Origin: Deltaproteobacteria bacterium
GTDB taxonomy: Bacteria; Desulfobacterota; Desulfobulbia; Desulfobulbales; SURF-16
Reading direction: 5' to 3'
Length of the DNA stretch: 64,000 nt
Assembly: GCA_024277655.1 (NCBI GenBank)
Contig: JAJRUT010000063.1
Span: 16,939-80,938 of the forward strand
The notes below the pieces were generated by a model. That model worked only from the letters and a program-made list of their open reading frames with translations, was not told the DNA's origin and did no database searches. The position numbers and the translations under genes are program-made. Numbering within the stretch: the stretch's first letter is position 1; each line of letters opens with the position of its first letter. Shown one piece after another: positions 19,061-27,899 of the stretch.

Positions 19061-19244
19061 CTGTTGGTGCTCTGGCTAATCAGGTTTCACTATGTCCTTC
19101 GACATAGTTGTCGACTCTTTTACTTCAAGTGTCGATGTTCAGCTGGGGGATAGCGTTGCTTTACCATTGGTGTAATTGGAATTATTCTAGTTGTTACAGT
19201 ATGTTATGTGGGGAATGATGGGGCTGTTATACTTTTTTATTTAT

Positions 19245-19260
19245 TGGCATGGCAGATGCA
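19245..19260 (+). promoter_or_regulatory. candidate sigma-54 (-24/-12) promoter
   Basis: TGGCATGGCAGATGCA matches TGGCAC-N5-TTGCA, with GG and GC at the correct spacing. It lies about 95 nt upstream of the ATG at 19356, and an NtrC-type activator gene is 3.4 kb downstream. Confidence 0.6.
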
Positions 19261-19355
19261 ATTTGAATTGGCACGTGAGAAGTATAACCAGGAAGAATTG
19301 ATCTGGAGTAAGATCTGTTTTTTCTACAGAAAACATTTTAATTGGAGGAATAGAC

Positions 19356-19736
19356 ATGAAATCATTATTAAGCGCGGTGGTCGGCCTTGCCCTTGGAGCA
19401 CTTCTTTTTACAGTGCCAATGGCTGGTGCCGTTGCTGGTGATGGAACTGGACCTGATGGCAAGGGGTGCCCTAAAATGGAAAACGGCGGTCAGGGCAATG
19501 GTAAGATGATACAGGGTAAGGGTATGGGTTGCGGTTGTTGTGGTAAGATGAAGAACGGTAAGGGCGTGGGTTTTGTTGACGCCGATGGTGATGGTATCTG
19601 TGATCACTATGCCAAGGCCATGGCTAATAATAGCGGTAAATGCAAGGGCCAGGGGGCAGGTTTTGTTGATGCCGATGGTAACGGTATCTGTGACCACCAT
19701 CCTGATAACGCCAAAACGCAAGAAGGCGCAAAATAG
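19356..19736 (+). CDS. small secreted Gly/Cys/Asp/Met-rich protein with duplicated GFVDADG(D/N)GICDH module (putative periplasmic metal-binding protein)
   Basis: Signal peptide MKSLLSAVVGLALGALLFTVPMAGAVA. Mature part contains GCPKM, GCGCCGKM and two copies of GFVDADGxGICDH, encoded by near-identical 39-nt repeats at 19569-19607 and 19659-19697. Confidence 0.7.
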   Translation: MKSLLSAVVGLALGALLFTVPMAGAVAGDGTGPDGKGCPKMENGGQGNGKMIQGKGMGCGCCGKMKNGKGVGFVDADGDGICDHYAKAMANNSGKCKGQGAGFVDADGNGICDHHPDNAKTQEGAK

Positions 19737-19750
19737 GCTCATTGCTGAAT

Positions 19751-19787
19751 CTTTTAGTCCGGAAGGCTCTGGTCTCCGGACTAAAAG
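19751..19787 (+). promoter_or_regulatory. intra-operon stem-loop (attenuator or mRNA-stabilising hairpin)
   Basis: 13-bp perfect stem cttttagtccgga/tccggactaaaag with an 11-nt loop. It lies 15 nt after the stop of the small secreted protein. No U-tract follows. Confidence 0.5.
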
Positions 19788-19815
19788 AGGCTGATGGTGC
19801 GCCGGAAAAAAGAAT

Positions 19816-20232
19816 GTGAAGATGATGATTCCCAAAGTCTTTTGCATAACAGCATTTCTTGTGCTGTCTTTGGCTACGTTTGCTTGCGCTGACTATATCC
19901 AAGGCCATGTGGTTTTAGTTGATCGCCAGCAGGGGGTGGTGGATATTGTTTTATGTGAGACCTGTCCGGAGGGGAAAACATGCGTTGTTGATTTATCAGA
20001 GCATATGAAGACCCATGGTTCCGAGCCCGTAATTATCAGGGTTGTTGTCGCTTGGATTCCCCGCTGTTTGCGGGTTGGTACTATGGCTTTTGCCCGCGGT
20101 GTGTATTCGGCAGACGATAGGAGTCGTTTTGAGGCCGTTGAAATTTTTCCCCGTAAGCGCATGGGTGGTAGGGATGACACCGGAGTTCGTTCCCGTTTTC
20201 GTAATCATCGGGGACAGCAAGGGGCACCATGA
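19816..20232 (+). CDS. secreted hypothetical protein
   Basis: 138 aa, GTG start, signal-like leader MKMMIPKVFCITAFLVLSLATFACA. The stop overlaps the histidine kinase start (ATGA). Confidence 0.5.
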   Translation: MKMMIPKVFCITAFLVLSLATFACADYIQGHVVLVDRQQGVVDIVLCETCPEGKTCVVDLSEHMKTHGSEPVIIRVVVAWIPRCLRVGTMAFARGVYSADDRSRFEAVEIFPRKRMGGRDDTGVRSRFRNHRGQQGAP

Positions 20233-21731
20233 ACAATAAGTCTTCGCTGAAAAAGGTTTGGTCATGGAAGGTGAATCTTTTGATGATTACCTGGCTTGCC
20301 GGGGGGGTGTTGGTCTACTCCCTCATTCAGGTCTATCAGCTGCGCTACACCCTGAATCAACATCTGCTTGAAAATCGTGATATGGTTATTCGCACCGTGA
20401 ATCGTCAGATTCAGCAGGGTATGGCGGCTGAAGAGGCCCTGAATGAGACCATTGCCCTGTTTCTTGCCAATACCGCTCGTTTTATCCATACACTCAATCA
20501 GGTGGAGCCGTTTTCGGTGTCAGAGCTTGCCAGTTACGCCGATGAAAATGGTTTGACAGGGGTTCTTATCCTTGACCCTGCCGGTGGACAGATTCAGGGG
20601 CCGCCTCAGTGGTATGCCGATCCAATCCAAACCGTTGCCACCAGCCGTCTCTGGAAAAATCCCCAGGCGGGGGAGGTCGTTTTCTTTTGGCCGGCTCCAA
20701 AAGGGGGCATGGTTGTACTCGGTTTTCCCGATCGTCAGTTTACCAAGCTGCATCGGCAGTTTGACTTGGTTGAAATTTTAAATCACCTCTCCTCATCTCC
20801 TGAAATCAACTTCATCGAAATTAGAAAGCCTATGACTAGGTATACTGCAGAGGGGAGAGGTGTGATCATTGAGACAATCCCTGTGAATGGTCACGAGGTG
20901 GTTGTTGGTTTTGATACCAGTCGGTATGAAGAGCGGGTTGCCAAGGTATGGCATGATTTTTTTCTCTACGGGTTACTGCTCGGTGGTTTTGGGCTTTTCC
21001 TCTCCTATCTTCTTTATAAATATCAAAAACATTATTTTGTAAAAATCCAGAATTTTGAGCGGGTCCTAGCGCGGGAGCAGGAGGATGCAGCCCTTGGCCG
21101 AGCTGCCGCCACCATCGCCCATGAGGTTCGTAATCCGCTCAATGCCATTGGTTTGGGATTGCAACGTATAAGTTTTGAGGCGGATCTGGATGGGGAGCAA
21201 GAGAACCTTGTCTCGGCAATGGGTGAGGCGTTGCGCCGAACCAATACCATTGTTGAGGGGTTGCTCAACTATTCCCGTCCCTTGGAGGTAACGAGTAAGT
21301 GGTGTGATTTGGACAAGGTCTTGACCCAGGCGGTGCTTCTGCGTGAGCCCCAATGCCGTTCTTGTAAGATTGATCTGCGTTTTAGTCCTGGCTGCACAGC
21401 TCAGGTGCTGCTGGATAAGGATCTGTTTTGTCAGGTAATTGACAATCTGCTTAAAAATAGTATTGAGGCACAATCCTCAGGGGGCTGGATTACAGTTACC
21501 AGTCGCGTGGTGGATAGCTGGGTGCGGATCCGGGTGCAAAACCCCGGCTTTGACAAGGGTAGTGAAATTGCCCAACTTGCGGAGCCCTATTTTACGGGGA
21601 AAACAAGGGGTAGTGGTCTGGGGCTTGCTATCTGTGCTAAAATTATTCAGGCCCATGGGGGGAAACTTCTCTTCAAGGAGCCGGAGGCTGGGGTGTTGCA
21701 GGTTGATGTGATGCTACCGCAATTTGGTTAA
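20229..21731 (+). CDS. sensor histidine kinase (two TM segments, periplasmic sensor domain, HisKA + HATPase_c)
   Basis: H-box AATIAHEVRNPLNAI, N-box LLKNSIEA, G-boxes GSGLGLAICAKIIQAHGG. TM segments lie near residues 16-37 and 242-262. Confidence 0.88.
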   Translation: MNNKSSLKKVWSWKVNLLMITWLAGGVLVYSLIQVYQLRYTLNQHLLENRDMVIRTVNRQIQQGMAAEEALNETIALFLANTARFIHTLNQVEPFSVSELASYADENGLTGVLILDPAGGQIQGPPQWYADPIQTVATSRLWKNPQAGEVVFFWPAPKGGMVVLGFPDRQFTKLHRQFDLVEILNHLSSSPEINFIEIRKPMTRYTAEGRGVIIETIPVNGHEVVVGFDTSRYEERVAKVWHDFFLYGLLLGGFGLFLSYLLYKYQKHYFVKIQNFERVLAREQEDAALGRAAATIAHEVRNPLNAIGLGLQRISFEADLDGEQENLVSAMGEALRRTNTIVEGLLNYSRPLEVTSKWCDLDKVLTQAVLLREPQCRSCKIDLRFSPGCTAQVLLDKDLFCQVIDNLLKNSIEAQSSGGWITVTSRVVDSWVRIRVQNPGFDKGSEIAQLAEPYFTGKTRGSGLGLAICAKIIQAHGGKLLFKEPEAGVLQVDVMLPQFG

Positions 21732-22510
21732 TCTGTGCAAGGTAAGCAGTAACGCGTGATACAGGTTGCGATTCGTTCCCGTTGAATTGGTTTACGGATA
21801 ACCTCGAGAACACTGTTGTGTTGAACAATGGACAGTAGCTCGGCTAGGGACTGAACAGCGGTTTGGACAACAATATTTGCCGGGCCTGTAAGGTTACCAA
21901 GGGCGCGGTTTTTCTCAACGATGGCAATAAAATGATTACCATCAACTTCTGGCATCATGATATCCAGCAGTACAAGGTCGAATGGTTCGGTGAGGTAGTG
22001 ATAGATTGCCTCCGTAGCTGAGTCTATAGCGGTAATTTCGATATCTGGATGAAAGGACTTGATGAATTCAACCAGCAGGGTACGGTTGACCAGTTCGTCG
22101 TCAACCACCAGGATACGGACATCCTTAGCCTGCTTTTTTTTGGGGCGCTTACTATTTTTCTTGTCAGTGAAGGGGGTGAAACGCGCTATAATATTGTGGC
22201 TTTCCTGATTGGCAAAATCATTGTTGTTAAGTTCACCGATCTGATCAATCAGCATGATGGTGATGTTGATCAACTCTGCCGGTGTTTCTTGGTGTGTCTT
22301 GGCGGCAAAGCTATCTGCAGCAAGGGAGAGGACAAGACTTGCATTGTCAAGATTAAACAACTCGGCCACGCCTTGTAGGGTGCGGAGGGTGCCAACGGTT
22401 GCTGTTCTCAAAGCGGTATCTGCGGGGGATTGCTCCAAGGCTAGAAGGGTTTGCTCGGCCTCGGTGAGAAAAACATCGGCTTCGTCCTGGAATTCAATGG
22501 ATGATGACAT
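21728..22510 (-). CDS. response regulator with N-terminal Hpt-like domain
   Basis: C-terminal receiver: ILVVDDELVNRTLL ... DLVLLDIMMPEVDG ... IRKP. The N-terminal roughly 100 aa is a helical Hpt-like region (FLTEAEQTLLALEQ ... LRTLQGVAELFNL) that lacks the expected His. Confidence 0.7.
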   Translation of the reverse strand: MSSSIEFQDEADVFLTEAEQTLLALEQSPADTALRTATVGTLRTLQGVAELFNLDNASLVLSLAADSFAAKTHQETPAELINITIMLIDQIGELNNNDFANQESHNIIARFTPFTDKKNSKRPKKKQAKDVRILVVDDELVNRTLLVEFIKSFHPDIEITAIDSATEAIYHYLTEPFDLVLLDIMMPEVDGNHFIAIVEKNRALGNLTGPANIVVQTAVQSLAELLSIVQHNSVLEVIRKPIQRERIATCITRYCLPCTD

Positions 22511-22664: not shown

Positions 22665-24008
22665 ATGAAAATATTGATTGTTGATGACGAGGAGATGCAG
22701 CGGGATATGCTCCAGGGCTTTTTGTTAAAGCAGGGGTATGGGGTAGAGACTGCCTCCGGTGGCGATGAGGCCATGGTTCTTTTTGACCAGAATGGTTTTG
22801 ATCTCGTCTTGCTCGATCATCGTATGGACGGCATGAATGGCGATGAACTCCTGGCGCATTTAAAGAAAAAAAATCCTCTGGTTCGGGCCATTATGATTAC
22901 GGCTTACGCCAGTGTTGATACGGCGGTACGGGTGATGCGTCTTGGGGCCGATGATTTTCTGGAAAAGCCTGTTGATCTTGCTAATTTACTGGCAAAGATT
23001 GAGGCGATTAACCAAGAGCTTGCCATTGATGAGGAGGCCAGTGAGGTCGTAGATGTTCTAACTGAGCAGGAGTTGCCACTCCAGGTGATTGGTGAGTCGA
23101 AGGGGATGAAGGAGTTGTTGTCACTCGTCCACCGCATGTCCCAGACCCCCTGGACGGTACTGGTGCGGGGTGAGACCGGGACGGGTAAGGAATTGATCGG
23201 TCGTTTACTGCACCTCCTCTCCCCCCGGAAAGATCAGCCCTTTGTTGAATTAAACTGTGCGTCAATTCCGGAGAATCTGTTTGAGTCGGAGTTGTTTGGT
23301 CACGAAAAGGGTTCCTTTACCGGTGCTGACTCTGCTCGTAAAGGTAGATTTGAACTGGCTGATGGTGGAACCCTGTTCCTTGATGAGGTTGGTGAATTAC
23401 CCCTGTCTCTTCAGGCCAAGTTGCTGCGGGCTTTGCAGGAAAAACAGATTAGTAGGGTGGGCTCCGAGCAAGCTATTTCCATTGATGTAAGGGTGGTCAC
23501 CGCCACCAATCGCGATCTGAAAAAAATGACTGAGGATGGGTTGTTTCGAGAAGATCTCTACTACCGCCTAAATGTGTTGGAGCTTGAGATTCCACCCCTG
23601 CGCTACCGAAAGGAGGACATCCCCCTTCTTATTGAATTTTTCCTTGTAAAATACAGCTTTCGCCCCACCGGCTTTAGCCGGGAGGCGGTTGATGCCCTGA
23701 TTAAATATCAATTTCCTGGTAATATTCGTGAGCTTGAGCATCTGGTTCAGCGGGTTATTACCCTGGCTAGGAGTTCAACCATCGGTATTGCCGACCTTCC
23801 CCTTGAAATAAGGATGGGGCAGGCCGCAAGTCATGGTGATCTAGGCTCCCGCCTGGATGATATGGAGAGGGAGATGATTGTGGAGGGTTTGAAACAGTAT
23901 GACTGGGTACAGACCAGGGCTGCGGAGTCTTTGGGCATCAGTGAACGGGTGCTGCGCTATAAAATGGCTAAACATGGTATTCGCAAAGGTGGCCTATCTG
24001 CAAAATAA
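22665..24008 (+). CDS. sigma-54-dependent response regulator (NtrC/ZraR-like: REC + AAA+ + Fis HTH)
   Basis: Receiver [16 protein letters not shown] ... [17 protein letters not shown]+ core with [31 protein letters not shown]-terminal [24 protein letters not shown]. Confidence 0.92.
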
Positions 24009-24148: not shown

Positions 24149-24430
24149 ATGTCTGAAACAATAGAAGACTTGACCATTGACTGGGAAGAAGATGGGATCA
24201 TGACCTGTAAAGAGCTGGATAAGATTGTCCTGACCAAAGGTGCCTGGTCCACCATTATTTACCGCTACCAGCAATGGGATAAGAAGAAGGAAGAGTATGG
24301 CCCGGATCGCTACACGATCAGGCGTTACCAAAAATATCAGGGTGAGTACAAGCCTAAGAGTAAGTTTAATATTTCAAGTGCAGCCCAGGCCGAGAAGATT
24401 ATCGAGGCGTTGCAAGGCTGGCTGAAGTAG
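24149..24430 (+). CDS. hypothetical small protein
   Basis: 93 aa, charged and Lys/Tyr-rich, with the SD-like sequence AAAGGAAACAAG before the ATG. No motif recognised. Confidence 0.5.
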   Translation: MSETIEDLTIDWEEDGIMTCKELDKIVLTKGAWSTIIYRYQQWDKKKEEYGPDRYTIRRYQKYQGEYKPKSKFNISSAAQAEKIIEALQGWLK

Positions 24431-24698: not shown

Positions 24699-26567
24699 TT
24701 ATAACTTGACCCTACCACTTCCTGTCCAGCCAGCCTTCCGTATCTCCCGGCTGAGTTGGGCGGTGATCTCCCATTTGTTAAGGGGGCTTATCAGATATAA
24801 CCCATCCACAAAGTTGGCGATGTCATCCATGAGTTTCCTGGTGTAATCCAGGGCGCATTTACGTTGGTCTTCGACCTTGTCATACTGCCAGAGCTTTTTA
24901 CGTAGCGATTCAGGGATGGAAATGCCCGGTACTTCATTATGGAGAAACTCGGCGTTGCGGGCTGAAATCAGCGGGAAGATTCCCGGCAGGATAAGTACGT
25001 CAAGATGGCTGACTGCCTCCATCATCTGTTCAACCTCTCGAGAGTCAAAGAGGGGCTGGGTCATGACAAATTTAAGACCAAGTTCCACCTTGCGTTCAAG
25101 TCTTCTTATTTGGACATCTGGGCGCGATGGCCTGAATGAAAATGCGCCACCAATGGAAAAATTGGTGGCCTCTTTCATCTCTTTGCCTGCCATGTTCTTG
25201 CCGTTGTTAAATAGGTCAATCATCCGCAGAAGACCAAAGGATTTCACATCAAAAACGCCACTGGTTCCTGGTTGATCAGATGAGGTTGCCGGATCGCCGG
25301 TGATGCCCAGAATACCGCCAATACCAAGGAGGTGCGCCCCCATTATTTGGGATTGCAGGCCGAGAATATTGCGGTCACGGCAGGTGAGGTGGATAATGGT
25401 CTGGGTGTCGAGTTCCTCGCTGATCAGATGAGCGAGGGAGAGGTTGTCGGCCCGCAGGATAGCCAGGGGGTTCTCGCCGAGGGAAATAGCGTCAGCGCCA
25501 CTTTCCTTGATGGCTCTTGCGCCCTCAAGGACGCCGGTGACATCGAGATGGGTGGGCGGGTCAAGTTCAACCACAATGGGCATTCTGCCCGGCGATAACG
25601 ACTTCAGAAACTGGCCTGTTTTAGAGTTTGAAACAATCTTTTCCGTGCCCTTGCTGTCGCCCTGAACATCCGCTGAGCGTTGCAGGGGGCGGCGTTTGAT
25701 TTTTAGCTGTTGCCTGAATTCGTTTATATGGGTTGGTGTGGTGCCGCAGCAGCCGCCGACCAGACGTGCGCCAAACTTAATCATTTCTGCCAGAACCTTG
25801 ACCATATAGGCCGGTTCGGCGGGATAGACCATACGGTGGCCAACAATTTCAGGGAAACCGGCGTTGGGGAAGGCGGAGAGTGGTGCCTTGTCTCGCAGGG
25901 GCGAGAGGTGTTCCATGGCGGTTAGGAGTGATGAGACACCACGCCCGCAGTTGCCCCCGATTACATTGGCACCAGCGTCCAGAGCGGCCGTGCCACAGGT
26001 CAGGGCATCGATACCGGAACTGGTCTTGCCGCGGGATGGATAGGCCATTTGGGCAATTATGGGGATATCGGAGAGGGCGCGGGCGGTGCGGATGGCGGTG
26101 ATTAGTTCATCAAGATGGGTGAAGGTCTCAAACAGGAGTACGTCCACCTCGCTTTCCAGAAGAATGGTAATCTGTTCCTTGAAAATATCAGCCAGCGACT
26201 CTAGGTTACGCTCTTCATCGGTGAAAATCTCAAGCCCGGTGGGGCCGATGGAGCCTGCCACATACACGTCTTGCCCAGCGGCTCTTTTGGCAAGAGTCAC
26301 CCCGGTCTGATTAATCTCCTTAAGCTTGCCCTCAAGCCCTGCGGACTCAAGTCTTGCCCGGTTGGCCCCGAAGGTGTTGGTTTCGATCAGTTGGCTACCT
26401 GCCCTGATATACTCCTCATGGATGGAGTAGATTAGGTCAGGTTCGCTGATATTCAAACGTTCAATATCCTTACCAAGTTCAATGCCTTTGCCGTAGAGAT
26501 AGGTGCCGATGGCACCATCGCCAAGGAGGATTTTGTTTTGCAGGTAGTCAATAAAGTCAGGTTTCAT
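24699..26567 (-). CDS. bifunctional homocysteine S-methyltransferase / methylenetetrahydrofolate reductase fusion protein
   Basis: N-terminal Hcy-binding domain (LLGDGAIGTYLY ... GGNCG ... GGCCGTTP). C-terminal MTHFR domain (HLTCRDRN ... ITGDP ... MTQPLFD). Confidence 0.85.
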   Translation of the reverse strand: MKPDFIDYLQNKILLGDGAIGTYLYGKGIELGKDIERLNISEPDLIYSIHEEYIRAGSQLIETNTFGANRARLESAGLEGKLKEINQTGVTLAKRAAGQDVYVAGSIGPTGLEIFTDEERNLESLADIFKEQITILLESEVDVLLFETFTHLDELITAIRTARALSDIPIIAQMAYPSRGKTSSGIDALTCGTAALDAGANVIGGNCGRGVSSLLTAMEHLSPLRDKAPLSAFPNAGFPEIVGHRMVYPAEPAYMVKVLAEMIKFGARLVGGCCGTTPTHINEFRQQLKIKRRPLQRSADVQGDSKGTEKIVSNSKTGQFLKSLSPGRMPIVVELDPPTHLDVTGVLEGARAIKESGADAISLGENPLAILRADNLSLAHLISEELDTQTIIHLTCRDRNILGLQSQIMGAHLLGIGGILGITGDPATSSDQPGTSGVFDVKSFGLLRMIDLFNNGKNMAGKEMKEATNFSIGGAFSFRPSRPDVQIRRLERKVELGLKFVMTQPLFDSREVEQMMEAVSHLDVLILPGIFPLISARNAEFLHNEVPGISIPESLRKKLWQYDKVEDQRKCALDYTRKLMDDIANFVDGLYLISPLNKWEITAQLSREIRKAGWTGSGRVKL

Positions 26568-26630: not shown

Positions 26631-27899
26631 TTAATCACGGTTGGGTGTTGTGATTCTGATTCCGGTTCCTGGACGGTATTGGCCGTCTCTATCTTTGCGC
26701 CCGTTGATTGAAATGCCGGTGGCTTTTCGTGGTTGTTGGTAAGGCTCTGTCTTTTGCCTATTGCGGCGGATTTTTTGGGATTCAGGCGTAATAATTTTAA
26801 CGGCAGTTTCGGGTATAGCAGGCGCTTTCTTATTCTTGACGGTTTTTGAGATGATTGGTTTGGGCGGGGTGGTAACCTCTGTTGTCAGAGGGGTTGGTTC
26901 ATCCCGCATGCCGAAAAAGAGGGTGGCAATGATGATGAGTAGAATTGCGCCACCAATATAGAGGGCGGGGGATGGGCGTATGGTCTGGTTCTGGGGGCGG
27001 CGGTTTTGGCTCAAAATGGTTTTGTTGGTGGCCTTGTCCGTGATTTGCCGCGGCATGGTGGTGTGGGGCGGGATCTTCTCGAAGGCAAGCAATAACGCTT
27101 TTTTTAACTCGGAGGCTGAGCCAAAGCGCTTATTTGGTCGTTTTGATAATGAGGTGCGGAGCAAGGTGTCGAGCTTTTGGGGGAGCTGGTCATTGATGTT
27201 GGAGGGGTGGGGCGGATGTATGTTCACCACCTGATGCATGATGAGGGACATGGTCTCGCCGGTGAACGGTTTCAGGCCGGTCAAGAGTTGGTACAGGATT
27301 ACGGCGGCCGAAAACAGATCGGTGCGATGATCGACCTTTTCTCCGGTGAACAGTTCCGGCGCCATATAGGCGGGAGTGCCCATGATGGTGCCGATCTGGG
27401 TGAGGTTTGATGACTCCATCCTGGCGATGCCAAAATCCATAATCTTGATCTGCCCGTCACTTGTGAACACCAGATTGGCTGGTTTGATATCCCGGTGGGT
27501 TACGTTATGGGTGTGGGCGTAATCAAGCCCTGCGAGCAGTTGCACCATGAAGTCTTGCACCTGACCGATAGTGAGTTGGTCGTGGAGCATGATCTCCTGC
27601 AGGGTGCGGCCTGAGACATACTCCATGGAGATGAAGGCGGTATCCTCATCTTCGCCATACTCATAGACCATGACGATATTGGCGTGGCTCAGCTTTCCCG
27701 CTGCCTGTGCCTCGCGTTTGAAGCGGGCCATGGCCTCCTGCTGTTCATTGTCGTCAAAGCTTGTTTTACTAATGACCTTGATGGCCACCGTCCGGTTGAT
27801 GATTGGATCGTGTCCCTCATACACCATACCCATGGCCCCCCGACCAAGGGGTTTTGTAATGGTGTATTTGCCAATTTTTTCAGGATGAGATGGCGACAT
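26631..27899 (-). CDS. Hanks-type serine/threonine protein kinase with one TM segment and a basic, proline-rich extracytoplasmic tail
   Basis: GRGAMGMVY ... VAIK ... HRDIKPANL ... DFGIA ... GTPAYMAPE. TM segment YIGGAILLIIIATLFFG. Confidence 0.9.
   Translation of the reverse strand: MSPSHPEKIGKYTITKPLGRGAMGMVYEGHDPIINRTVAIKVISKTSFDDNEQQEAMARFKREAQAAGKLSHANIVMVYEYGEDEDTAFISMEYVSGRTLQEIMLHDQLTIGQVQDFMVQLLAGLDYAHTHNVTHRDIKPANLVFTSDGQIKIMDFGIARMESSNLTQIGTIMGTPAYMAPELFTGEKVDHRTDLFSAAVILYQLLTGLKPFTGETMSLIMHQVVNIHPPHPSNINDQLPQKLDTLLRTSLSKRPNKRFGSASELKKALLLAFEKIPPHTTMPRQITDKATNKTILSQNRRPQNQTIRPSPALYIGGAILLIIIATLFFGMRDEPTPLTTEVTTPPKPIISKTVKNKKAPAIPETAVKIITPESQKIRRNRQKTEPYQQPRKATGISINGRKDRDGQYRPGTGIRITTPNRD

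Follow-up and report, generated by a model that had tools for sequence, protein, structure and literature searches.

Why would a small secreted protein, rich in glycine and cysteine and carrying two nearly identical aspartate-glycine loops, be encoded just upstream of a sensor kinase and a sigma-54 activator? We considered this question for a stretch of 64,000 nucleotides (the window) from contig JAJRUT010000063.1 (positions 16,939 to 80,938; assembly GCA_024277655.1) of a deltaproteobacterium from the order Desulfobulbales. The gene in question, open reading frame 1 (ORF1), heads a series of genes: ORF2, a sensor histidine kinase, a receiver-domain gene on the reverse strand, and an NtrC-type sigma-54 activator (Table 1). 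The same order recurs in the orthologous loci, up to the point where each contig ends. An initial annotation of the sequence described ORF1 as 126 amino acids long, with a signal peptide and a duplicated GFVDADG(D/N)GICDH module, and translation and a repeat search confirmed this. We give about an even chance to the following answer: ORF1 would be the principal output of a circuit dedicated to sensing the envelope, and its product would be an induced, exported, metal-binding protein of the periplasm.

A conserved -24/-12 element and palindrome upstream of ORF1

The initial annotation proposed a -24/-12 promoter upstream of ORF1. We compared this element, TGGCATGGCAGATGCA (19245-19260), to the sigma-54 consensus TGGCAC-N5-TTGCA, with GG at -24 and GC at -12. 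It agrees with the consensus at 14 of 16 consensus-length positions and at 9 of the 11 specified bases; the spacing from GG to GC is correct; and it is the sole site in the window that matches the -24/-12 pattern with zero mismatches. Matches to a degenerate -24/-12 pattern are expected at a rate of 0.81 per window, and at least one was present in 58 of 100 shuffled sequences. A single match, taken alone, is no better than chance and proves nothing.

Orthologous loci are more informative. ORF1 has seven orthologs in a collection of 5.8 billion proteins (47-83% identity), and a genome scan identified another one in a metagenome-assembled genome from the Desulfurivibrionaceae (locus L007). We aligned the upstream regions of 6 orthologous loci (mean column identity, 60%) and scanned 8 loci for patterns (regular expressions); the 8 include a distant ortholog with 38% identity over the best matched segment. 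In the alignment, the TGGCA, G, and TGCA of the -24/-12 element are invariant columns, as are CGACA..TGTCGA and a later TGTCGA. The scan found exactly one -24/-12 element per locus in all 8 loci, 90-98 nt 5' of the ATG. All 8 loci also have paired TGTCGA half-sites, 213-270 nt 5' of the ATG.

These half-sites form a palindrome, TCGACA-N4-TGTCGA, which is followed about 15 nt later by the further TGTCGA. The exact palindrome, TCGACATAGTTGTCGA, occurs once in the window. The whole arrangement lies about 115-145 nt upstream of the -24/-12 element, which is the customary position for an enhancer-binding-protein site and is within the range of roughly 80-150 bp for an upstream activator site. The adjacent bacterial enhancer-binding protein is also complete, as it has both a GAFTGA-type loop and the AAA+ domain that interacts with sigma-54. 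In particular, the annotation had placed an NtrC-type activator at 22665-24008, and its product does match Response_reg, Sigma54_activat (E = 3.6e-72), AAA_lid_14, and HTH_8 from Pfam, with GSFTGA in the translation. Because the -24/-12 element and the palindrome are both conserved across 8 orthologous loci, it is very likely that ORF1 has a genuine sigma-54 promoter, together with an activator site that is dedicated to it. Thus, phylogenetic footprinting bears out the proposed promoter and adds the palindrome, which had not been seen earlier.

Given the GG/GC spacing, transcription is predicted to start near 19271. That position opens a further semiconserved stretch, which is GGCA[AC]GTGAGAAG in the orthologs. 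We also considered a second TGGCAC(G), at 19269-19284, and rejected it as a promoter: it lacks the GC at -12, and it falls at the inferred transcript start. We did not find a sigma-70-like site on the + strand of the region upstream of ORF1 (19061-19355). Between the palindrome and the promoter, the A/T-rich block at 19191-19210 has what we take to be a weak likeness to the consensus of integration host factor (IHF).

The ORF1 protein and its loops

The translation of ORF1 reads MKSLLSAVVGLALGALLFTVPMAGA, which is a classic signal peptide, and then VAGDGTGPDGKGCPKM...GMGCGCCGKM...GFVDADGDGICDH...GFVDADGNGICDH. The mature part is rich in Gly, Lys, Met, and Cys and includes the motifs GCPKM and GCGCCGKM as well as the two GFVDADG(D/N)GICDH modules. 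At the DNA level, a repeat finder reported a 57-nt repeat (19554-19610 and 19644-19700, 81% identical); by manual count, the 39-nt cores that encode the modules differ at 4 positions. The exact ORF1 sequence is present in a public protein collection, without a name.

The two modules, DADGDGICD and DADGNGICD, follow the Dx[DN]xDG rule, including the downstream Asp: the rule calls for Asp at position 1, D/N/S/T at position 3, D/N at position 5, Gly at position 6, and an acidic residue later (PMC3123361). Loops of this kind bind Ca2+ alike in at least 16 folds (PMC3123361). The annotation's suggestion that the module resembles Ca2+- or metal-binding loops fits this rule, and it also fits the cross-matches between a profile of the module and thrombospondin type-3 proteins (see below).

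The annotation also stated that ORF1 belongs to no family that can be named, and we reached the same conclusion. ORF1 had no match in Pfam, NCBIfam, or PADLOC (nor any CpxP/ZraP-type match even at E ≤ 10) and no significant match to the sequences in PDB, and a text search of a library of papers did not find the strings DGDGVCD or DGDGICD. The nearest matches in PDB are to loops of calmodulin, such as VDADGDGTIDF, and are not significant. Among EF-hand proteins, calmodulin does have similar loops with similar spacing between two of them, and some relatives of ORF1 have sub-threshold matches to lanmodulin. However, position 12 of the ORF1 loops is Ala or Pro instead of Glu; AlphaFold2 predicts no helix ahead of either loop, and the helices that follow the loops are short and of low confidence; and all of the matches are nonsignificant (E = 0.03-1.5). 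EF-hand_1 itself had a match in just one ORF1 ortholog (E = 0.23).

Four other candidates were rejected. When ORF1 and ORF2 were scanned, LAGLIDADG_1 gave a spurious match (E = 0.066) that is due to the string "DADG," and a sub-threshold match to DUF2613 is also spurious, as it falls on the signal peptide. DUF5320/MJ0753_N was suggested by the N-terminal GDGTGPDG, but hmmscan of five orthologs found nothing, and a search of the literature gave no useful mention of it; the only sign of it is a precomputed flag for PF27309 on the protein P0002, labeled "faint" (PF27309 may be absent from the copy of Pfam that we scanned). Finally, the Excalibur domain has the form DxDxDGxxCE, with a Cys-Glu pair at loop positions 9-10. 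ORF1 has Cys-Asp at positions 8-9, which is one residue early, and has no Pfam match to Excalibur at E ≤ 10.

ORF1 is predicted to be largely unstructured, with a mean predicted local distance difference test (pLDDT) score of 39.4 in an AlphaFold2 model that was built from an alignment of 8 sequences; beyond pointing to disorder, the model is uninformative. Gly makes up about 25% of the protein, and hydrophobic residues make up 7-11%. The mature orthologs are 24-31% Gly and 6-11% hydrophobic, with 3-10% Met, 3-8% Cys, and 2-7% His. Potential soft ligands include the Cys-Asp-His-His/Tyr of the module and the Met, Cys, and His of the linker. The two module cysteines are the only Cys that are invariant among the orthologs, and the total number of Cys ranges from 3 to 8, which argues against a fixed disulfide scaffold.

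A widespread family of module proteins

The initial annotation suggested searching with a profile of the module and checking its neighbors in other anaerobes. We built a profile from two-module segments and compared it to 1.84 billion representative proteins (clusters at 50% identity). At least 2302 proteins matched at E ≤ 1e-3 and 663 matched at E ≤ 1e-10; most of the 2302 are 90-260 amino acids long, and most start with a signal-peptide-like segment. Among the best 139 small matches, the median length is 160 amino acids, and 127 have an N terminus that resembles a signal peptide. The logo of the module is G-x-[NG]-F-V-D-[AE]-[DN]-G-D-G-[VI]-C-D-N. In a separate scan of genomes, relatives were found in 169 species-level genomes, and L007 contains the only ortholog of ORF1 among them. 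The others are small secreted proteins with 1-6 modules of the CD type, sometimes with extra degenerate copies, and the carriers include Clostridia, Coriobacteriia, Bacteroidales, Chloroflexi, Nitrospirota, Myxococcales, and Methanoperedens. Scanning metagenomes with the N terminus of ORF1 gave no confirmed relatives. The subfamily in the window is marked by His after Cys-Asp (CDHY or CDHH), where the family usually has Asn. The module family is not rare; only the His-bearing subfamily is.

Across the family, loop positions 1, 4, 5, and 6 are 100% conserved, Asp at position 9 is 99% conserved, and Cys at position 8 is 84-98% conserved. If the cysteines do the work and the Asp/Gly loop is just a scaffold, then ORF1 could be a stress protein of anaerobes that acts through thiols, in response to redox changes, oxygen, or sulfide and polysulfide. 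The conservation of the Cys and the varying number of Cys among ORF1 orthologs would suit this explanation, and most of the named carriers (Clostridia, Coriobacteriia, Anaerolineae, Desulfobulbales, and Methanoperedens) are presumably anaerobes. However, the Asp and Gly positions are under stricter conservation than the Cys, some modules have Asn or Pro in its place, and no thioredoxin-like or CxxC-fold partner recurs in the neighborhood survey that is described below. We think that a thiol-based role is unlikely.

The module is related or analogous to the thrombospondin type-3 loop of bacteria (FxDxDGDGVPDY) and bears a Cys. Both contain the core F-x-D-x-D-G-D-G-V-x-D, and the module profile retrieves TSP3_bac (PF18884) proteins at E values of 1e-20 to 1e-28. 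When we scanned six large profile matches with Pfam, TSP3_bac was found in four (P0045, P0046, P0100, and P0138) and not in P0099 or P0131. On the other hand, the Pfam model does not match ORF1 and gives just 11-12 bits on its relatives, versus a gathering threshold of 25 bits, and the module has Cys at position 8 where TSP3_bac has Pro. Also, the module proteins are tiny, contain little else, and are linked to signaling genes, whereas TSP3 repeats are embedded in large surface proteins.

This similarity raises the question of whether ORF1 is a structural protein of the envelope or matrix, whose Ca2+ loops would link anionic polymers or mineral surfaces in the way that thrombospondin-3 repeats of bacterial surface proteins do. 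Some of the TSP3_bac surface proteins that the profile matches carry type IX secretion signals, and the Gly-rich, low-complexity composition of ORF1 would be suitable. However, ORF1 is small and has no anchoring motif, and linkage to regulators and an inducible promoter would be unusual for a constitutive structural protein. We consider a structural role to be quite unlikely.

The breadth of the family bears on another explanation, that ORF1 is the precursor of repeated signaling peptides or modified peptides, which would be secreted and then sensed by the adjacent kinase as autoinducers. In favor of this, ORF1 is a small secreted protein with nearly identical repeated cores, encoded directly 5' of a sensor. 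But Chloroflexi, Clostridia, and archaea have almost the same core motif, while pheromones diverge rapidly; the signal peptide is an ordinary one for Sec (the general secretion pathway); and the recurrent neighbors do not include a protease, an exporter, or a maturase. Because the motif is conserved across phyla, this explanation is very unlikely.

Two variations in module content were also seen. L007 encodes four modules (L007:433-1008), and the stretch GFVDKDGDGVCDHYKGAMPG...GRMMQGRCCAGQGQMT is tandemly repeated almost exactly, except for a short insertion; a repeat this exact suggests that the number of modules changes by recent duplication. Longer variants with an N-terminal extension, some with a lipoprotein-like Cys start, were found in L029, L030, and L076 (Nitrospinota and relatives) and in L074, L081, P0094, and P0150. 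These alternate Cys-type modules (GDGVCDY) with Asn-type modules (GNGVNDY or GDGINDN), and in the loci that were examined, signaling genes do not adjoin them.

Module genes adjoin signaling genes

To survey the neighborhoods of module genes, we took 85 loci and grouped into clusters every ORF that lies no more than 6 kb from the module gene. The recurrent neighbors were extracytoplasmic function (ECF)-type sigma factors (Sigma70_r2 / r4_2; 38 loci), RsgI_M anti-sigma factors (33 loci), histidine kinases (22 loci), and OmpR-type regulators (20 loci). With hidden Markov models built from the clusters, 38 loci were classified as ECF, 25 as two-component, and 14 as neither; the other 8 are cut by the end of the contig. 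So, signaling genes adjoin the module gene in 63 of 77 informative loci, or in 56 of 70 if the ortholog group from the window is left out. The linkage is tight. Up to 1 kb from the module gene, ECF sigma factor genes reach 0.235 per kb, and farther away they are present at 0.017 per kb or less; similarly, kinase genes are present at 0.123 per kb at a distance of 1-2 kb and at about 0.005 per kb at 4-8 kb.

Upstream of the module gene, 26 of the 35 ECF loci that were scanned contain GAA[TAC]GGA-N15-CGT[AG]T, 67-88 nt 5' of the start (shuffles gave 0.07). This motif resembles what we take to be an ECF-type promoter. An ECF-type promoter at this position would make the module gene the first gene of a self-induced sigma operon. 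This implies that the module gene would be the induced first gene both in the ECF architecture and in the sigma-54 system of the window. (In Clostridia and relatives [L009-L086], the motif is often preceded by an A/T tract. Coriobacteriia have the variant GCAAGGA...CGT, and Bacteroidales have a different pair, GCAAGTTTTT...TTGTCTAAA.)

The genes for the anti-sigma factors lie downstream, about 1.0-1.3 kb from the module genes (L009-L085); in L054, the distance reaches about 2 kb. Most of the RsgI_M anti-sigma factors end in extracytoplasmic tails that are rich in Gly, His, and Gln, such as GHHGHHGYGGGR or GHGHHHGYGHQ. The Gly/His-rich tails resemble the C-terminal tails of the module proteins.

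A broader proposal, which we make tentatively and would call possible and short of probable, is that the proteins with F-V-D-x-D-G-D-G-[VI]-C-D are undescribed extracytoplasmic partners that span the phyla. Three unrelated transmembrane signaling architectures (ECF sigma factors with RsgI-like anti-sigma factors, OmpR-type two-component systems, and the sigma-54 two-component system of the window) would each have recruited them as the first, self-induced gene, and they would provide the cell envelope with a shared module for sensing and buffering that responds to metals or redox conditions.

The hairpin, ORF2, and the sensor kinase

What lies between ORF1 and the kinase? The initial annotation reported a hairpin with a 13-bp stem after ORF1. 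The hairpin is present, but its stem is 14 bp (arms at 19750-19763 and 19775-19788). A strong hairpin follows the ORF1 stop codon in every ortholog locus, with unrelated sequences. In L005 and L007, a T-run comes next, which is the form of a canonical terminator; the hairpin of the window has no such run. The hairpin at 19750-19788 is probably a partial terminator or an RNA-stabilizing hairpin. That a hairpin is kept at this position would fit a short, abundant transcript of ORF1 with partial read-through into ORF2 and the kinase. Across the whole window, Rfam did not identify any RNA family.

ORF2 has an N terminus that resembles a signal peptide, and its TGA stop overlaps the ATG of the kinase at 20229, both as the annotation had reported. 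This translational coupling points to ORF2 as a stoichiometric partner for the sensor. The mature protein begins with DYIQGHV. Five relatives of ORF2 are known, all of them orthologs, and the invariant residues include C47, C50, C56, C84, H31, H63, and H67. A search of PDB sequences found nothing significant; Pfam, NCBIfam, and PADLOC gave only spurious matches below threshold; and a scan of metagenomes gave no confirmed relatives. AlphaFold2 produced a beta-rich model with moderate confidence (pLDDT of 63). Foldseek found no significant match for this model (best E = 0.44). Oligonucleotide/oligosaccharide-binding (OB) folds, with CusF and YobA among them, recur near the top of the ranking, but as these matches are nonsignificant, they are just a hint. 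We rejected ExtJ (NCBIfam NF040942) for ORF2: it scores 16.6 bits versus a cutoff of 52.5, and the model also matches residues 1-31 of unrelated secreted proteins.

In the kinase, two hydrophobic segments, identified by eye, flank about 200 residues, which would be a periplasmic domain that is not assigned to any family. The sensor part has no match in Pfam and nothing significant among PDB sequences. This half of the protein is conserved in orthologs, and a homology search with it gave only one partial match. The receiver gene on the reverse strand is convergent with the kinase gene, with a 4-nt overlap, and the synteny is kept in L001, L003, and L007. The N-terminal ~125 amino acids of the receiver protein have no Pfam match. 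This protein might act as a phosphate sink, or the kinase might use it as an alternative partner.

With these genes in view, ORF1 could instead be an input to the circuit: a ligand-dependent co-sensor that binds and switches the kinase at its periplasmic domain (or an anti-sigma factor, in the case of other phyla), with its metal- or redox-dependent folding as the signal. CpxP acts in this way on CpxA, as does ExoR on ExoS. Linkage of the module gene to three signaling architectures is consistent with this, as are the Gly/His-rich extracytoplasmic tails of the partner anti-sigma factors, which are like those of the module proteins. Also, titles in the reference list of PMC4987338 present ZraP as an output of its system that also represses it. 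However, a dedicated strong promoter, together with a hairpin before the kinase, suggests that ORF1 is expressed far above the level of the sensor, which fits a bulk effector, and the gene that is translationally coupled to the kinase is ORF2, not ORF1. We rate a co-sensor role for ORF1 as somewhat unlikely. It is not mutually exclusive with an effector role, and the two may coexist.

A possible role for ORF1

If ORF1 is an induced effector, the circuit might operate as follows. The kinase would sense a condition in the periplasm, probably together with the Cys/His-bearing, translationally coupled ORF2, and would phosphorylate the NtrC-type activator. The activator would bind TCGACA-N4-TGTCGA(+TGTCGA), about 130 nt upstream, and open the sigma-54 promoter at 19245-19260, and the ORF1 product would then be made in quantity. 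The hairpin would let part of the transcription pass into ORF2 and the kinase, which would provide feedback. Once exported by Sec, the ORF1 protein, still largely unstructured, would bind divalent metal ions at its two D-x-D-G-(D/N)-G-I-C-D-H sites, which are similar to thrombospondin-3 or EF-hand loops, with the additional Cys, Met, and His of the linker as further ligands. We infer that its role would be to buffer the ion in the periplasm or to sequester it there; the protein may also send a signal to the sensor. It would act as ZraP or the SilE/PcoE "sponges" do, without being related to them.

The initial annotation compared the locus to ZraPSR, which responds to envelope and zinc stress in Enterobacteria. 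ZraP is a zinc-dependent periplasmic chaperone whose expression is driven by sigma-54 and controlled by the adjacent kinase and NtrC-type regulator (PMC4987338). As an analogy of layout, the comparison stands: in both cases there is a small periplasmic protein (with metal binding predicted for ORF1), a sigma-54 promoter, and an adjacent kinase and NtrC-type regulator. As a claim of kinship, it does not. ORF1 is not in the CpxP/Spy/ZraP family. The best NCBIfam match for the kinase is ZraS, at 137.8 bits versus a cutoff of 479, and the regulator scores 414.8 bits with AtoC, 392.1 bits with NtrC, and 379.5 bits with ZraR (cutoff, 760), all below the equivalog cutoffs. The gene order differs as well: ORF1 is codirectional with the kinase, and ORF2 and the reverse-strand receiver gene are interposed, whereas zraP and zraSR are divergent.

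SilE and PcoE are another point of comparison. Proteins of this type are expressed under two-component control, and SilE has His/Met motifs and folds into helices when it binds Ag+. SilE has been described as an intrinsically disordered periplasmic sponge in silver resistance (PMC5008109). Like these proteins, ORF1 is small, exported, predicted to be disordered, and rich in metal-ligand residues. Unlike them, it carries Asp/Gly loops with Cys, and there is no sequence relationship.

Several observations count against an induced, metal-buffering effector. First, the ligands point in two directions: the Asp loop favors hard, Ca2+-type ligand chemistry, while the Cys, His, and Met favor soft metals. 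Second, a low pLDDT from an alignment of 8 sequences is weak proof that ORF1 is disordered. Third, the sigma-54 activator may serve another promoter, and the reverse-strand receiver could be the true partner of the kinase. Fourth, a search of the window, and of the window alone, did not find rpoN. Fifth, the resistance-nodulation-division (RND) pump encoded upstream of ORF1 was considered as a metal exporter and was rejected: its scores place it with multidrug pumps and not with heavy-metal pumps. Thus, it gives no contextual hint of metal stress. The pump is probably a unit separate from the ORF1 locus: it has its own TetR gene in L002, and an inserted hybrid kinase separates it from ORF1 in L001.

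When bacteria sense and survive envelope stress and metal stress, small accessory proteins of the periplasm, among them CpxP, Spy, ZraP, and SilE, play a central part. To our knowledge, only a handful of such families have been described, almost all of them from Enterobacteria. The ORF1 locus is a bounded regulatory unit, with a candidate enhancer site, a probable sigma-54 promoter, a proposed effector, a possible co-sensor, a kinase, and an activator, and it points to a new type of effector. The module is common in gut Clostridia, Coriobacteriia, Bacteroidales, Chloroflexi, and some archaea, mostly beside sigma/anti-sigma or two-component genes. Many uncharacterized signaling systems would therefore gain a shared handle: one short motif, one predicted class of ligand, and defined promoters. 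The module could also serve as a simple peptide scaffold, with a Ca-type loop and a thiolate, for studies of metal binding.

Layout of the locus and neighboring genes

Table 1. Features of the ORF1 locus, with positions in the window
Feature	Positions	Strand	Details
Candidate enhancer (upstream activator site)	19099-19135	+	palindrome TCGACATAGTTGTCGA at 19099-19114; third half-site TGTCGA at 19130-19135
A/T-rich block GTTGTTACAGTATGTTATGT, possible bending (IHF-like) site	19191-19210	+	columns partly conserved in the upstream alignment
Probable sigma-54 -24/-12 promoter, TGGCAT-GGCAGA-TGCA	19245-19260	+	GG at 19246-19247; GC at 19258-19259
GGAGG ribosome site of ORF1	19344-19348	+	
ORF1	19356-19736	+	126 aa; signal peptide, 19356-19430; two modules, 19569-19607 and 19659-19697
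Stem-loop 3' of ORF1	19750-19788	+	14-bp perfect stem, 11-nt loop, no T-run
ORF2	19816 (or ATG at 19822) to 20232	+	136-138 aa; signal-peptide-like N terminus
Sensor histidine kinase	20229-21731	+	500 aa; HisKA and HATPase_c (Pfam)
Receiver-domain protein	21728-22510	-	260 aa; Response_reg, 1.1e-13
NtrC-type sigma-54 activator	22665-24008	+	receiver, AAA+ with GSFTGA loop, and Fis-type helix-turn-helix

Directly 3' of the sigma-54 regulator is a 93-amino-acid ORF (24149-24430) with no match in Pfam or NCBIfam; L001 also has a 93-amino-acid gene at this position. Two more ORFs, both on the reverse strand, encode 622 amino acids (24699-26567) and 422 amino acids (26631-27899) and fall outside the finding. 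In L001, genes of equal length and at matching positions carry S-methyl_trans and MTHFR domains (622 amino acids) and a Ser/Thr protein kinase domain (422 amino acids).

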